Shown piece after piece: positions 8,757 through 60,440 of a stretch of DNA of 64,000 nucleotides. The first letter of the stretch is position 1, and each line of letters opens with the position of its first letter. The notes beneath the pieces were generated by a model. The model saw only the letters and a list, made by a program, of their open reading frames with translations. It ran no database searches and was not told where the DNA came from. The translations under genes were made by a program, and so were the position numbers. The stretch lies in the sequence record NC_048194.1. One strand, 5' to 3'. Source of the DNA: Escherichia phage vB_EcoM_WFH.

Positions 8757-9040
8757 GCGTATAATGACGTATCATCCGTATCAAGTAAGTAGTTGTTTTC
8801 AAAAGAATCTTACGGATGATACGGATGATACGCGTTGCCGCGATACTTTATAGGAATTCAAATAAATTAATTTAAAATTATATATCTAATTTAATTTTAT
8901 TTTTTTATAAACTCTTATATATGAAAAGTATCCGTATCATCCGTATCATCCGTAGCACACCAGTGATAGCGCGGCTTATACACCGATACGGATAAAAATA
9001 CGCCTCATTTTATCCGTATCATCCGTATCACACTAATTAA
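8757..9040. repeat. iteron module copy A: tandem/inverted 9-mers (CCGTATCAT / TTATCCGTA) flanking an AT-rich spacer
   Basis: gcgtataatgacgta..., cttacggatgatacggatgatacgcg, ~90-bp AT-rich tract, then tccgtatcatccgtatcatccgta and ttatccgtatcatccgtatca; 45-bp core nearly identical (2 mismatches) to 60229-60273. Confidence 0.7.
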
Positions 9041-55153: not shown

Positions 55154-55185
55154 AAAAAGGTGAGCTAAATGCTTGCCTTTTCTTT
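55154..55185 (+). terminator. intrinsic terminator, copy 1 of a duplicated element (AAAAAGGTGAGC-TAAAT-GCTTGCCTTTT)
   Basis: Hairpin with G:U-tolerant stem followed by TTTTCTTTT; near-identical copy at 56692-56725. Confidence 0.55.
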
Positions 55186-55233
55186 TATCAATACTTATAC
55201 TCTTTTCATCAAGACTAACAAGTGAGGTGAATT

Positions 55234-55551: not shown

Positions 55552-55766
55552 ATGCCGCGCTGGGTAAGCTGTCTTTCAACAAGCGCAATGAGCTGCGCAT
55601 GGTGTCGCGCTTTCAACAAACGTATTCATCACTAATAAAGATTGCAAATAAGGCCGACTCTAGAGCTTGCCATAAAGAAGAATGGGAAGCATTGAACGAG
55701 CGTCGTAAACAATTACAACATGCTGCATTCAAGCTGCAGCAATATGCTATGGAGTATGCAAAATGA
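55548..55766 (+). CDS. hypothetical protein (72 aa)
   Basis: ATGA overlap (track start 55530 upstream). Confidence 0.35.
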   Translation: MNAALGKLSFNKRNELRMVSRFQQTYSSLIKIANKADSRACHKEEWEALNERRKQLQHAAFKLQQYAMEYAK

Positions 55767-56047
55767 AGGTGCAACGCTGCCCACATTGCTTGTCAACTAT
55801 GCGACTTCCTGTTGAAGAATATTTACATCACGTTAACGTTTGTGAAGCTAATCCTGAAAATTCGACGCGTTACTATTATCACTATCACGCAGAAGCGGAA
55901 GATGGATCAGGCGCAACAGGAATCGTTACCACGAAAGAAATGGTGATCACCAAAAAGGCGTATGAAAGCCTGCTGGATACAATAAAGGAAGTATCTGGAA
56001 AAGAAATAATCTGCATTAAATCTTTGTCTTTCTTACACGAGGTGTAA
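55763..56047 (+). CDS. zinc-finger-like small protein (paralogue 1)
   Basis: MKVQRCPHCLSTMRLPVEEYLHHVNVCEANPEN; C-x2-C...H-x3-C pattern; paralogous to next gene. Confidence 0.45.
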   Translation: MKVQRCPHCLSTMRLPVEEYLHHVNVCEANPENSTRYYYHYHAEAEDGSGATGIVTTKEMVITKKAYESLLDTIKEVSGKEIICIKSLSFLHEV

Positions 56048-56048
56048 A

Positions 56049-56432
56049 ATGAGAATGAAACGTTGTCCGTATTGCCACGATGTGATGCATCTTCCACATG
56101 AAGAGTTTGTGCAGCACATGACTAACTGTGATAAGAATCCTAATAGCGAAAGCCAACTTGAAGAAAGAATGTTCTTGGTGTCATTCAAAGCTTCTGCTTA
56201 TGAAGTGCAACGTTCTTACGGCGCACCAAGTACGATTTACTGTCCAACGACATTGAGAAGCGACATCGACTCAATTCAGCTTGCGGCCTGGATTAACGTT
56301 AAGGAAGGAATCACGCCGCACTTTATCGCGCGCATCCAATCCCAGATTCTACAAATCAAGCGCGAATACAACCGTGACATCACTGAAGTGAAGGTGTTGT
56401 CTATCACACCGATGAATAAGGAGTTGCCGTGA
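56049..56432 (+). CDS. zinc-finger-like small protein (paralogue 2)
   Basis: MRMKRCPYCHDVMHLPHEEFVQHMTNCDKNPNS; same motif as 55763..56047, with extra C-terminal region. Confidence 0.45.
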   Translation: MRMKRCPYCHDVMHLPHEEFVQHMTNCDKNPNSESQLEERMFLVSFKASAYEVQRSYGAPSTIYCPTTLRSDIDSIQLAAWINVKEGITPHFIARIQSQILQIKREYNRDITEVKVLSITPMNKELP

Positions 56433-56691: not shown

Positions 56692-56725
56692 CAAAAAGGT
56701 GAGCTAAATGCTTGCCTTTTTATTT
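56692..56725 (+). terminator. intrinsic terminator, copy 2 of duplicated element
   Basis: caaaaaggtgagctaaatgcttgccttttt followed by T-rich tract; near-identical to 55154-55185. Confidence 0.55.
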
Positions 56726-56766
56726 GCCTGTATTATACTTAGTTCATCAAGCAAAGGAGAATGATT

Positions 56767-57069
56767 ATGAGTTACGACGAAAGGTTTGGCAGAAGCGGAT
56801 TATTTCATGACGCTGTACACAAAGACAGCAAAGATGTTGTCTGCGCATTCAAGGTTGATTCTTACGGTACACTGAAACCTTTTAAGGTCGGCGAAACATA
56901 CAAGCTGTTTCACGGCTGGTTGACGCGTCGCAACAACTTGCCTGACATGGAAGTCTGGTGGATAGAATACAAGGGTCAGGCTCATCGTTGCAAGGTTGTA
57001 GAGGTGCGCGGCGTGGAATACTATCAATCTGTTATCAGCGGCTTTGTTTTTAAAGAGGGTGAGCTATGA
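56767..57069 (+). CDS. hypothetical protein (100 aa)
   Basis: Second ATG chosen for RBS spacing (aaaggaga); track start 56761. Confidence 0.4.
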   Translation: MSYDERFGRSGLFHDAVHKDSKDVVCAFKVDSYGTLKPFKVGETYKLFHGWLTRRNNLPDMEVWWIEYKGQAHRCKVVEVRGVEYYQSVISGFVFKEGEL

Positions 57070-57371
57070 GTACAGAAGCGATGAAGAAAAAGATTTTGAA
57101 CGCTTTGCAAGAAGCCGTGAACTGTGGTGCAATTAAAACCTTTACTGAAAGGCAAGTCGGTGAGGTGACGGTGCACGGATTCAATAATAACAAAAACGGA
57201 ATTGCTGCCATAATGCTGTTGAAGAACAGCGATGACACATTCATCCTTTACGTCGGCGGATATGAGCTTATCGTTGATGATTTGTTCATCACTTGCGCTG
57301 ACGGCCTTAACCCAATGTTAACGTTCGAGCGGCGCGGCATCCGTGTTGCAACGTTTGGAGGGAAGTTATGA
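57066..57371 (+). CDS. hypothetical protein (101 aa)
   Basis: ATGA overlap. Confidence 0.4.
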   Translation: MSTEAMKKKILNALQEAVNCGAIKTFTERQVGEVTVHGFNNNKNGIAAIMLLKNSDDTFILYVGGYELIVDDLFITCADGLNPMLTFERRGIRVATFGGKL

Positions 57372-57532
57372 CATCAAATCTTAAAGCCCGTTTATTATTC
57401 ATCAAGCCGCATGTGCCGTATAAGATTAGTAAGCGCACCTGGCTTAACATTTACAACCGCAGCGGCGACCGTTGCTTGTACAAGGCAAAGCGACGAAAGA
57501 AGGTTTATTCTTACACGGCATCCATCAAATAA
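57368..57532 (+). CDS. small basic ORF (54 aa)
   Basis: ATGA overlap; MTSNLKARLLFIKPHVPYKISKRTWLNIYNRSGDRCLYKAKRRKKVYSYTASIK. Confidence 0.3.
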   Translation: MTSNLKARLLFIKPHVPYKISKRTWLNIYNRSGDRCLYKAKRRKKVYSYTASIK

Positions 57533-57550
57533 GATTAGGAGAAGACTAAA

Positions 57551-58054
57551 ATGAAAATTGAACAACTCGAAGCAGTATTGGAAATGGCCGTAAAGGCAGG
57601 CGCAATCAAAAGCTATCGTCGCGAGAAGTCAGACGATGATGCGAACTTTTGCCGCAACTTCTATATCGTCGGCAACCTTAACGACCACTACACCATCGAG
57701 TGGTATATCAATATCATGACACTTAAGTCGCGCACAATGGAGCTTTGGTGCGATGACATCTGCTTATCTAACACCCATCCATCCTACGACGTTGCGTTGG
57801 CATTCTATTACGGAAGCCGTCAACCTGTCGCCCACATCGGAGAGAAGCATGAGCACCTTAAGGCACGACCAGAGGAATCAATGGAAGGCTGGATTGAATG
57901 GGCTGGAGGAAAGAATCCGGTGCCTGGTAAGAAGGTCATGTTGATGTGGAGGAATGAAGAAAAGTCGTCGTATTCGTCCAATTCGGAGGGATGGCTATGG
58001 CACCACAACGGAAGCGTTTATGACATCATCGCTTATCGCGTCGTGGAGGAATAA
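57551..58054 (+). CDS. hypothetical protein with C-terminal GGxNPVPGK module (paralogue 1)
   Basis: 167 aa; C-terminal WIEWAGGKNPVPGKKVMLMWRNEEKSSYSSNSEGWLWHHNGSVYDIIAYRVVEE shared with 58938..59369. Confidence 0.45.
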   Translation: MKIEQLEAVLEMAVKAGAIKSYRREKSDDDANFCRNFYIVGNLNDHYTIEWYINIMTLKSRTMELWCDDICLSNTHPSYDVALAFYYGSRQPVAHIGEKHEHLKARPEESMEGWIEWAGGKNPVPGKKVMLMWRNEEKSSYSSNSEGWLWHHNGSVYDIIAYRVVEE

Positions 58055-58395
58055 TGGAAGAGCAAGAAGGCCGTGAGCTAAAGTTCGACGAGCAAATGAA
58101 AGAGCTTCAGCGCACATCGCCGCTGCGCGGTAAGGTTGTTGACATCGAGGCGAGCGATTCCAATCTCACCCAGTGGCGGCTCAAGTGCACCAGCACAAGC
58201 AAGGACATGTTAAGCTTCAAAGTCGGTCAGACTTATTTGCTTTATGAGGCAAAAGGACTTATTATTGATGGAAGGCAAATTGTCTTCACCGTCGTCAACG
58301 GCATGCGTTGGTTTGTGAAGCGTGATGTCGAGGGTCGTGACATGTTTGTCGCAGGCTTTCCAGAAACAAGATTCGAATTGGAGAAGGTTAAATGA
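58054..58395 (+). CDS. hypothetical protein (113 aa)
   Basis: ATG overlapping upstream stop. Confidence 0.4.
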   Translation: MEEQEGRELKFDEQMKELQRTSPLRGKVVDIEASDSNLTQWRLKCTSTSKDMLSFKVGQTYLLYEAKGLIIDGRQIVFTVVNGMRWFVKRDVEGRDMFVAGFPETRFELEKVK

Positions 58396-58724
58396 AATTG
58401 AAATGGTACGTGGACCCTGAGCCAACAGGCCAATACAGGTCATTCCAACGTCGCGGCTGGCCGACTTGTTACAGCGGCAATCCCGATAAAGAAGATTGCG
58501 AGCTGCTTGCCGCTATCGTAAGCCTCGACCATCACGGCTATGAAGGCCACTACGCGAGAGCGACCAACCTTCGGCTCAAGGTGCGCATCCATTTCAAGGT
58601 CGCAGGCGAGGACCGCACCGGACTCTCCAAGGAAGAGTTCAGCAGCATTGCCGACGCAAAGGCATGGCTCAAGGCATTCTATAAGAACAACCCTAAATTC
58701 TATCCAACTAAGGATGCATCATGA
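58392..58724 (+). CDS. hypothetical protein (110 aa)
   Basis: ATGA overlap. Confidence 0.4.
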   Translation: MKLKWYVDPEPTGQYRSFQRRGWPTCYSGNPDKEDCELLAAIVSLDHHGYEGHYARATNLRLKVRIHFKVAGEDRTGLSKEEFSSIADAKAWLKAFYKNNPKFYPTKDAS

Positions 58725-58954
58725 CTGATAAACAATACGCAGTCGGACAACGTGACATCGAGCAACTCGACGAAGGCGGCTATTATACGCGCCACATCCA
58801 TGCCATGACGCATGAAGGACTTTACAGCAAGTCAGACATCGCCGCTGAACTGGCCCACCGTGACTTGCAAATTGACATGTTGCATCTTGCTCTTGAGAAG
58901 CAAACGCAAATCGCTATTGAAATTTTGGAGAAGTTAAATGATACAACGTTATGA
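58721..58954 (+). CDS. hypothetical protein (77 aa)
   Basis: ATGA overlap. Confidence 0.4.
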   Translation: MTDKQYAVGQRDIEQLDEGGYYTRHIHAMTHEGLYSKSDIAAELAHRDLQIDMLHLALEKQTQIAIEILEKLNDTTL

Positions 58955-59369
58955 TTTGACATACGATGTGGCGACAGAAGATTTCGACATCACTCCTGTT
59001 CCAGAAAGTCACGAAGGACGTTTTGTTGCATATGAGGACTACGCCGCGCTGGAAGCGAAATATAGTGAAGCGCAACGCGAGTTGGTTGCATTACGCTCAC
59101 AGGTCCGTGATGCGTCTGCGCTCGTTAAGCAGTTGCATGACGTCGTTGCTACTATAGGCGTGGATGCTGATGCGCCGAAGGAGGAAGCGTGGACCGTGTG
59201 GCATGGTGGAGAGAATCCGGTGCCTGGTAAGATGGTGGTGTTTGAATTGCGTTTCGGATATAAATCTAAATCGCCTGCTCTTTCAGATGATTTGAGATGG
59301 AAACGTAAGATGATTGATTGCCCTTCTGCATCAGACATCATAAAGTATCGCGTTGTTAAGGAGGGGTGA
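58938..59369 (+). CDS. hypothetical protein with C-terminal GGxNPVPGK module (paralogue 2)
   Basis: 143 aa; C-terminal WTVWHGGENPVPGKMVVFELRFGYKSKSPALSDDLRWKRKMIDCPSASDIIKYRVVKEG. Confidence 0.45.
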   Translation: MIQRYDLTYDVATEDFDITPVPESHEGRFVAYEDYAALEAKYSEAQRELVALRSQVRDASALVKQLHDVVATIGVDADAPKEEAWTVWHGGENPVPGKMVVFELRFGYKSKSPALSDDLRWKRKMIDCPSASDIIKYRVVKEG

Positions 59370-59818
59370 TGGGTAAACGCCTTATCGCCGCTGGTTGGGC
59401 CATACCGAAGTGGGGTCATCGTGCGCATTACTTTGACGAAGGAGAAGTGCAAAGCCTTTGTGGTCGCGCAACGTATTTCGGTGATGAGCGCGTCAGCGGT
59501 GATTATATCGACTCGCTTTTAGGTAAAGGTGATTGCAAGAAGTGTCAGAATATATTAAGAGATATTCTTACGCAAAAAGGATTGCTTGAGCTTGATGAAT
59601 CGGAAGAAGTAATTGAACTTAAGCTGGAAGCAAATTACCTTATTTATACGTTCAAGAACTATTACGCAACTAATATGCGCTCAAAAATGAGCGAGGAAGT
59701 AATAGAAAATGTGTTCACCTACAATCCGCTAAGGATGAATAAAACCAAATTGAAGAAGTTTAATATAATGTTAAGGAAAGAATTTAAAAGGCTAGGAGTG
59801 AAGAATTTTATATTTTAA
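59369..59818 (+). CDS. hypothetical protein with CxxC...CxxC pairs and Lys-rich C-terminus
   Basis: ATG at 59369 with RBS aggaggggtg (track GTG 59366); ...SLCGRATYF...GDCKKCQNIL...; last gene before strong terminator. Confidence 0.4.
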   Translation: MGKRLIAAGWAIPKWGHRAHYFDEGEVQSLCGRATYFGDERVSGDYIDSLLGKGDCKKCQNILRDILTQKGLLELDESEEVIELKLEANYLIYTFKNYYATNMRSKMSEEVIENVFTYNPLRMNKTKLKKFNIMLRKEFKRLGVKNFIF

Positions 59819-59834
59819 TAGTGATTAATGTTAA

Positions 59835-59859
59835 GAGGGCCGATTGGCCCTTTTTGTTT
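59835..59859 (+). terminator. intrinsic terminator (AGGGCC-GATT-GGCCCT + TTTTTGTTTG)
   Basis: GC-rich hairpin followed by U-tract, ends the long plus-strand small-gene array. Confidence 0.7.
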
Positions 59860-60115
59860 GTCCATGTGGTGTGAGTCTTTATTATCGGATAAAGCGATTG
59901 ATTTGTGTAAATCTATTAGAGGATTGTGGGAAGTGAGTATTGTGACGTGAATTTTGTGCCTTGGATATGTGTGCGAATTTGGAAGAATATTGTACTGTGG
60001 TGTTGTGGGATTGGAGAGGGAATCACTAGGTTTTGGGGCGTGTACCGTGGTGTGTGGGCCTGTAGGCTGCGCCGTCTCTGGGATTGCCGCTTGAAATTAA
60101 AAAGGAGATATAGTT
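59860..60115 (+). other. strand-asymmetric G+T-rich non-coding tract
   Basis: About 250 bp dominated by GTG/TGG/GGG runs on plus strand (C-rich, G-poor on minus strand); the only ORF is a Cys/Trp-rich artefact. Confidence 0.5.
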
Positions 60116-60143: not shown

Positions 60144-60440
60144 AGCGTATAATGACGTAAGATTTGGACCTATCCGTAGTTCACTCCACACACTTCTATG
60201 GTGCGCCGCGACTGGGTTCAGTGGTACATCTTACGGATGATACGGATGATACGCGTCGCCGCTATACTTTATACAACTTTGAAAAAAACAATTAACTCCA
60301 TTTTGAATTAATTTAAATTAATTTTTTTCTACATCCTCATACTTATACTAAACTTATATTTATACGTATTATCCGTAAGATATAAGTAAAAACAAAGACT
60401 TGCGGCAATACGGATGATACGTCATGATACGCTTCAACCA
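60144..60440. repeat. iteron module copy B (homologous to 8757-9040)
   Basis: gcgtataatgacgta...; tcttacggatgatacggatgatacgcgtcgccgctatactttata (45-bp core, 2 mismatches vs copy A); AT-rich spacer; ttatccgtaag and caatacggatgatacgtcatgatacgc. Confidence 0.7.

Follow-up and report, generated by a model that had tools for sequence, protein, structure and literature searches.

In a stretch of 64,000 nucleotides from Escherichia phage vB_EcoM_WFH (record NC_048194.1; hereafter the window), two genes, which we call gene A and gene B, end in copies of the same small domain (the module). Domain sharing and mosaicism are already ordinary among phage accessory genes. The analysis adds that this module belongs to a very large family lacking a curated model or structural neighbour, that it contains a delimited exchangeable core, and that there is direct evidence of recombination between the two paralogues. 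New here is that the core, of ~30 amino acids (aa), is exchanged as discrete, diverged alleles inside fixed edges that are conserved at the nucleotide level. We propose, at about even chances, that the module is a portable binding domain which combines a fixed scaffold with an exchangeable specificity surface. The two genes and their modules are as follows, with evidence from BLASTP, hidden Markov model (HMM) scans, PHROG profiles and an AlphaFold2 (AF2) model scored by predicted local distance difference test (pLDDT).

57551..58054 (+): gene A (ORF A, for open reading frame), 167 aa; N-terminal domain, flexible linker, C-terminal module
58938..59369 (+): gene B (ORF B), 143 aa; short head, coiled coil, C-terminal module
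57884..58051 (+): module copy A, aa 112-167; BLASTP, HMM scan, PHROG 9174/26870/16943/11995, AF2 pLDDT 82
59184..59366 (+): module copy B, aa 83-143; BLASTP, PHROG profiles, HMM scan

The shared module and its family

An earlier note on this DNA had described the two proteins as having unrelated N-terminal halves and a similar C-terminal module, and this description holds, the module being ~57 aa long. BLASTP aligns the C-termini alone (A 112-167 with B 83-142; 26 of 60 positions identical, 43%; E 9e-12) and returns no alignment for the N-terminal parts. The motif given for the module, W-x-x-W-x-GG-x-NPVPGK-x-V ... DII-x-YRVV-x-E, is correct for both copies. The note had also raised the possibility of a likeness confined to the GGxNPVPGK peptide, but at the protein level it goes further, because it also takes in the conserved R, S and W at the centre and the strand DII-YRVV. 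A six-frame HMM scan of the window identified exactly two copies of the module, those of genes A and B, which score 130-147 bits with a two-sequence HMM. Both match the same four PHROG profiles (E 7e-13 to 8e-5 for module A and 3e-9 to 1e-4 for module B). What the neighbouring genes share is, as had been supposed, a domain; it is autonomous and portable, and is carried here on two unrelated N-terminal parts.

A first, word-indexed homologue search returned eight proteins, and a profile built from these and the two window modules was then searched exhaustively against 1.84 billion cluster representatives. This profile search, which the note had recommended, retrieved a large family of 5,825 representatives at E<=1e-3, including 516 at E<=1e-10. 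The domain spans ~55 aa with the consensus GWIEWxGGxCPV(x5)VxVxxRxG(x7)A(x4)WxH(x5)DI(I/V)AYRVV. In an alignment of 88 modules the three Trp are invariant and GG, P, I and Y near-invariant; these invariant or near-invariant residues are W114, W117, G119, G120, P123, W150, I159 and Y162 in module A, and module B has the equivalents. Family modules are mostly acidic (mean net charge -2.6; 77% negatively charged), which argues against a classical DNA-binding role.

Carriers include stand-alone proteins of 59-70 aa, tandem arrays of 2-5 copies, proteins that place the module behind coiled coils, and fusions. Among 145 carriers the partners are dGTP_diPhyd_N (7), DUF3310 (6), DUF6378 (2), PF04447 (1) and HD (1), the recurrent ones being nucleotide-pyrophosphohydrolase-type domains. 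The family occurs in phages and prophages of Proteobacteria and in metagenomic proteins. A tblastn search found the module in 144 phage records, including phages of Escherichia, Klebsiella, Pseudomonas, Burkholderia, Aeromonas, Sinorhizobium and Salmonella, where it is annotated as hypothetical or mis-annotated every time. A bacterial genome scan with a 12-sequence subset of the 88-module alignment found it in Pantoea, Sphingomonas, Pseudomonas, Rhizobiaceae, Herbaspirillum, Xanthobacter and others, as stand-alone copies or fused to DUF3310 or DUF6378, with one copy adjoining a DUF551 domain. When A, B, the genes around them and members of the family were scanned with Pfam, NCBIfam and PADLOC, nothing was returned for the module, and the PADLOC-DB defence models gave no match to A, B or six family members. 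The sole matching families are PHROGs 9174, 11995, 16943 and 26870, all of 'unknown function' and none with a name or a structure; these are automatic whole-protein clusters of different carriers that each contain the module, rather than a domain definition. Literature searches found nothing for the module motif strings and no mechanism for DUF3310.

AF2 predicts the module to be a small beta domain (pLDDT 82) with long strands at VxVxxR and DIxAYRV. Thirty independently predicted viral proteins in BFVD, all uncharacterised, superpose on this model with template modelling (TM) scores of 0.64-0.88, and the predicted fold is reproducible. The invariant W/W/GG/P/W/I/Y residues would build it. A Foldseek comparison of the model with the PDB gave a best E of 0.7, and PDB sequence searches with two profiles returned non-significant matches to SRA1, USP7 and a WW domain (Salvador WW, E 0.096).

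Two groups of carriers merit separate mention. ORF56 of Burkholderia phage vB_BpP_HN01 (L013:3689-4171) is labelled 'polynucleotide kinase', a label for which Pfam gave no match; by eye its sequence looks like a DUF3310-like N-terminal part followed by the module, and the label is probably mistaken. Loci from prophages of Pantoea and Enterobacterales (L016:3641-4210, L021, L024-L026) have a common N-terminal leader, MNKLTAE..R.I..L....GLS..EE.YLQALEIALP.LEQ, which had no match in a Pfam scan. It is followed by differing small C-terminal domains, either DUF551 and the module or the module alone, making this another family with an exchangeable C-terminal domain.

The exchangeable core and its conserved edges

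The window belongs to the genus Wifcevirus, which comprises virulent myoviruses of E. coli (10.1101/2024.09.12.612763). Positions 56700-59900 of the window match 27 phage records at 86-95% identity, all of them Wifcevirus-type E. coli/Shigella myoviruses of 67-72 kb. Comparison within this group delimits the following segments.

57932..58021 (+): exchangeable core of module A, aa 128-157; allele comparison and DNA identity
59232..59333 (+): exchangeable core of module B, aa 99-132; DNA identity
57912..57932 (+): 21-nt (nucleotide) block, copy 1, G AAT CCG GTG CCT GGT AAG A, over NPVPGK
59212..59232 (+): 21-nt block, copy 2, identical to 57912-57932

Across 46 full-length gene A alleles, the majority-residue fraction is 0.85-1.0 in the N-terminal domain, 0.51-0.59 at aa 131-160 and 0.98 over the last seven residues, AYRVVEE. 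The gene A core falls into about eight discrete allele types, which are recombined with different linker variants and even as sub-core pieces, and every core allele retains the structural positions V, R, G, S and W. At the DNA level, in genomes whose neighbouring genes are 92-98% identical throughout, identity is 54-62% for the A core in seven of 12 relatives; for the B core it is 45-68%, or no alignment is obtained, in all 12. The two cores of the window are 21% identical over ~30 aa, and in each of the ten genomes carrying both genes the A core shows 19-38% identity to the B core. As a further test of core hypervariability, Klebsiella-phage carriers of the module were considered, and were set aside as uninformative, being 41-50% identical throughout.

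The 21-nt block over NPVPGK is the sole perfect identity between A and B at the DNA level. Its 14-nt core, AATCCGGTGCCTGG, is shared without change, synonymous sites included, by 20 of the 25 A and B copies in 13 genomes, and the remaining five Wifcevirus copies encode NPVPG with other codons. Repeated gene conversion is the simplest explanation for this identity of codons. Direct evidence of exchange between the loci comes from the hybrid P0156, an intact ORF found on two independent contigs: it has the gene A N-terminal domain, but its core and terminus match the WFH gene B module with 100% identity. On both contigs the stretch homologous to the window breaks off at 57927, where the 14-nt block ends, and picks up again at 59334, and the gene next to the hybrid is the orthologue of 59366-59818. 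These junctions indicate that recombination between direct copies removed 1.3 kb, comprising three intervening genes and the head and coil of gene B, and the block at 57912-57932 serves as a recombination junction. The core closest to the window B core (62% aa identity) belongs to the gene A that other phages carry, for example P0001, and on another contig the start of ORF 58392 is fused directly to the B module. Recombination at the conserved edges thus exchanges core alleles, both from one phage to another and between locus A and locus B.

Gene architecture and operon

The remaining parts of the two proteins, and the signals that bound their operon, are listed below.

57551..57856 (+): gene A N-terminal domain, aa 1-102; helix and eight strands; matches phrog_21861
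57857..57877 (+): gene A linker, predicted disordered, aa 103-109; pLDDT below 50 in the AF2 model
59031..59153 (+): gene B coiled-coil segment (predicted), aa 32-72; one heptad register, 11/11 a/d positions hydrophobic
56712..56739 (+): sigma-70-like promoter TTGCCT-16-TATACT, heading the operon that contains genes A and B
59833..59854 (+): terminator-like hairpin at the end of that operon

AF2 models full-length gene A (pLDDT 84) as an N-terminal helix and eight strands, the disordered linker and the module, and Foldseek found no fold match for this model in the PDB (best E 0.43). The N-terminal domain is Wifcevirus-specific, with 82-98% identity among Wifceviruses (one outlier at 66%), and its family, phrog_21861, is separate from the four module PHROGs; the linker varies among alleles in both length and sequence. 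The domain also occurs alone, as 108-aa proteins in AV128-type phages. Module-less gene A is found in the AV128 and Mansfield types and in frameshifted clusters. Three gene A clusters from other contigs (P0185, P0189 and P0196) have frameshifts at the module start. In P0189 and P0196 the shift lies in the GG codon run and the new frame terminates within the conserved block, at TGG TAA, so that the protein ends in ...GAW*; in P0185 the shifted frame is read through to 146 aa. P0196 and P0185 are located on ~68-kb contigs. Sequencing errors may account for these frameshifts, or they may be a way in which gene A repeatedly loses its module. A relation of the gene A N-terminus to ORF 57066-57371 was also considered and is unsupported (E 12).

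Gene B is a mosaic with at least three head alleles, two unrelated coiled-coil alleles, a conserved KEEAWTVWxGGxNPVPG junction, a variable core and a conserved DI(I/V)AYRVVKEG end. Residues 32-72 are predicted to form a coiled coil because they show a perfect 3-4 hydrophobic repeat over five heptads, and a Pfam scan gave weak DivIC/TPR coiled-coil matches for the segment. The second coil allele, unrelated in sequence, occurs in WFC, Bas98, Bas100 and Bas101. Some phages have two modules (ECO71P1, P0013), and others have duplicated head/coil segments (kaset, WFH).

Both genes have a Shine-Dalgarno-like sequence 7-8 nt upstream, and their orthologues carry coding-sequence annotation in related phages. 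Syntenic gene A orthologues are present at 10 of 12 Wifcevirus loci and form 53 clusters at 90% identity; gene B has syntenic orthologues at all 12, built from alternative head, coil and core alleles. Primase and primase/helicase genes open a rightward block, and the two genes lie in its final transcription unit. From this operon position, between a sigma-70-like promoter and a terminator-like hairpin and downstream of the primase/helicase genes, it is plausible that host RNA polymerase transcribes them early.

Several other features were observed in and around this block. A repeated intergenic cassette (55155-55201 and 56693-56739, +) consists of a terminator-like hairpin, AAAAGGTGAGCTAAATGCTTGCCTTTT, overlapping and directly 5' of a sigma-70-like promoter, TTGCCT-16/17-TATACT; it splits the rightward block into sub-operons, and phage WFC has annotated terminators at the equivalent places. 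Past the operon terminator, in an ORF-poor stretch, a ~105-nt non-coding sequence at 60228-60331 repeats 8807-8909 with 79% identity (E 2e-18), with a weaker inverted match of this region (60232-60432 against 8954-8757). The repeat contains ACGGATGAT twice in tandem, then ACGCGT(C/T)GCCGC(T/G)ATACTTTATA, and an AT-rich tract, and may be a phage-specific promoter or regulatory element. The adjacent ORFs 55763-56047 (94 aa) and 56049-56432 (127 aa), both +, form a second neighbouring pair with a common module in the block. They share an N-terminal 36-aa module (39% identity, E 1e-10; M+xxRCP(H/Y)C...M.LP.EE..(H/Q)H...C..NP), whose CxxC...H...C pattern resembles zinc-binding; their C-terminal parts are unrelated, and a PHROG search gave no match for either ORF. 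ORFs 56761-57069 and 58054-58395 (+) have a common peptide, FKVG(E/Q)TY(K/L)L(F/Y), at a marginal pair E of 0.006, and may be a distant paralogue pair within the operon or a chance likeness.

Interpretation and comparison with known systems

The most reasonable reading of the module is a binding or adaptor role. In the mechanism that we envisage, the exchangeable core, which is the beta2-beta3 hairpin and the following loop, would form the specificity surface for a macromolecular partner of host or phage. Gene A would display one module copy on a flexible tether from its Wifcevirus-specific domain, and gene B two or more copies, multivalently, via a parallel coiled coil in a design as in lambda Ea22. 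The two copies of one genome probably have different specificities, because their cores differ, and the turnover of alleles is probably driven by selection from host factors that vary, for example defence or takeover targets.

Several points weigh against a binding role. Neither a solved structure nor a fold neighbour backs the role. The module is dispensable in some gene A backgrounds, because gene A persists without it. Allele replacement need not reflect selection and could be neutral, the result of mosaicism at a hot spot of recombination, and the recurrent nucleotide-hydrolase fusions suit a small-ligand role just as well. Lastly, the 2-5 tandem copies seen in the majority of the best 150 family matches come from a list ranked by total score and therefore biased towards multi-copy proteins.

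The earlier note had suggested that genes A and B have a common interaction partner, for example a host target, with different effector or recognition halves. Both modules docking on the same host target while the N-terminal halves bring different activities would fit the shared scaffold and motif, the position of the two genes in one operon, the portability of the module and the intact ORF of the hybrid between the A N-terminal domain and the B module. We nevertheless consider it unlikely. The identities between A and B are the family-invariant scaffold (W, W, GG, P, W, I, Y, R), and these residues are probably structural, because they are invariant across the whole family, phages of unrelated hosts included. 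A single shared partner is unsupported because the cores differ in every genome with both genes, and two specificities are likelier than one because the differing core is the part that turns over between near-identical phages. The idea of effector halves fares no better, since neither half resembles an enzyme or effector: the gene A N-terminal domain has no Pfam, PHROG-function or PDB-fold match, and the N-terminal part of gene B is a predicted coiled coil.

We give a similarly low probability to a role in which the module binds, or regulates through, a small ligand such as a nucleotide or derived signal, held in a pocket of W/W/W/Y/R, with the variable core irrelevant or immune-evasive. The repeated fusions to dGTP_diPhyd_N, DUF3310, DUF6378, PF04447 and HD domains and the strict conservation of the aromatic residues and Arg speak for such a ligand, as does the occurrence of stand-alone and tandem forms, which resemble the general format of phage 'sponge' proteins. 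Such fusions, however, make up only ~16 of 145 sampled proteins, and neither gene A nor gene B has a hydrolase partner domain. In a domain of ~55 aa, three Trp with Ile, Tyr and Val are more likely a hydrophobic core, and the PDB fold and sequence searches revealed no likeness to any known nucleotide-binding fold.

It is also rather improbable that the module is an oligomerisation unit or structural spacer without a specific external ligand, its core varying by neutral drift and hot-spot recombination. Tandem arrays, the association with coiled coils and the absence of the module from some gene A variants are consistent with this, and the C-terminal domain of lambda Ea22 is a dimerisation unit (PMC10834534). 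Such a spacer would not be expected to show discrete, well-separated core alleles with structural positions intact in otherwise 92-98% identical genomes, or A and B cores that differ within every genome, and stand-alone proteins of 59-70 aa would be purposeless as mere spacers. Finally, the conserved DNA blocks could themselves be the functional element, a recombination or regulatory site to which the protein likeness is secondary, as the 21-nt perfect A-B identity at synonymous sites and the deletion junction exactly at the block would allow, but this is very improbable given that across many hosts the protein motif is kept family-wide and the DNA is not, five Wifcevirus copies themselves using other NPVPG codons.

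A bolder extension of the binding-domain reading, which we regard as speculative and unlikely, is that the module is an antibody-like general recognition scaffold of phages. On a tiny, fixed beta frame, a hairpin and loop cassette would be swapped by recombination at edges conserved in nucleotide sequence, so that every phage had a few binders (gene A, gene B and tandem arrays) aimed at variable host proteins such as defence components. If so, a large part of the small dark-matter ORFs of phages, amounting to thousands of clusters, would be inhibitors or adaptors that are specific to an allele and share one fold without a PDB relative. Short of this, the analysis delimits a domain and not merely two genes, among early and accessory phage genes of which most have no assigned function, and the scaffold/core subdivision together with the natural allele series provides an experimental handle; the BASEL set of Wifceviruses, with different A and B cores in Bas98-101, already differs mainly in these cores. 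Should the cores determine specificity against host factors, the family would offer new small protein binders and would mark loci at which host and phage are in conflict. Should they not, the domain model would still be worth depositing, and the locus would illustrate how repeats within a genome drive deletions in a virulent phage.

The WW domain of Salvador, the best if non-significant PDB sequence match, aligns over GGxxPVPxx...W.H, and there is one weak WW_USP8 Pfam match. The module is ~20 aa longer than a WW domain and has extra conserved strands, and Foldseek gave no WW match. Another parallel is DUF551 (PF04448), a small portable C-terminal domain of proteins from prophages and phages, for example YfdS, Ea22 variant V2 and MazZ-type dATP/dGTP pyrophosphohydrolases (PMC10834534). 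Like the module it is ~60 aa, Trp-rich and beta, and is carried C-terminally on coiled-coil early proteins and on nucleotide pyrophosphohydrolase domains. In a single prophage protein from Pantoea (L016:3641-4210) the two adjoin. Their motifs are distinct (W..W.GG..P ... DIxAYR in the module, W......P ... THWMPLP in DUF551), and the DUF551 Pfam model matched neither A nor B at E<=0.1 nor any of the 88 family modules at E<=10. A profile search for DUF551 returned one protein, and hhalign of the module against the resulting thin, two-sequence profile gave a probability of 0.4%; Foldseek against BFVD gave one weak match to a DUF551 protein (rank 50, TM 0.49).

In lambda Ea22 a variable N-terminus is followed by a coiled coil and by an acidic C-terminal domain that can be swapped, with DUF551 among its variants, and the host partner is unknown (PMC10834534). 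Gene B resembles it: its short N-terminus varies, a predicted coiled coil lies in the middle, its small C-terminal domain is acidic and exchangeable, and each segment is mosaic. Full-length Ea22 is tetrameric and its phenotype pro-lysogenic. The nuclear magnetic resonance structure of its C-terminal domain revealed a mixed alpha-beta dimer fold (PMC10834534), which differs from the predicted fold of the module, and Ea22 is encoded in the exo-xis region of temperate phages, in contrast to the virulent myovirus studied here. The PF13935 (Ead_Ea22) model had no gene B match at E<=0.1 and matched one of the 88 modules weakly (E 0.09). Since neither gene matches the Ea22 or DUF551 models, we take both systems as analogies for genes A and B, and read the relation of gene B to Ea22 as analogy rather than membership.

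A further likeness is to the receptor-binding mosaics of tail fibres and the variable regions of diversity-generating retroelements (DGRs). An origin of the core variation from a DGR was rejected, there being no template repeat in the window: blastn of both module DNAs against it gave the mutual 21-nt block alone, a reverse-transcriptase gene not having been specifically searched for. In all these systems a conserved frame holds an exchangeable or hypervariable binding segment between conserved recombination junctions. Unlike tail-fibre mosaics and DGR targets, genes A and B do not encode virion proteins, and their cores change by whole-cassette replacement with indels rather than by adenine-directed mutagenesis.

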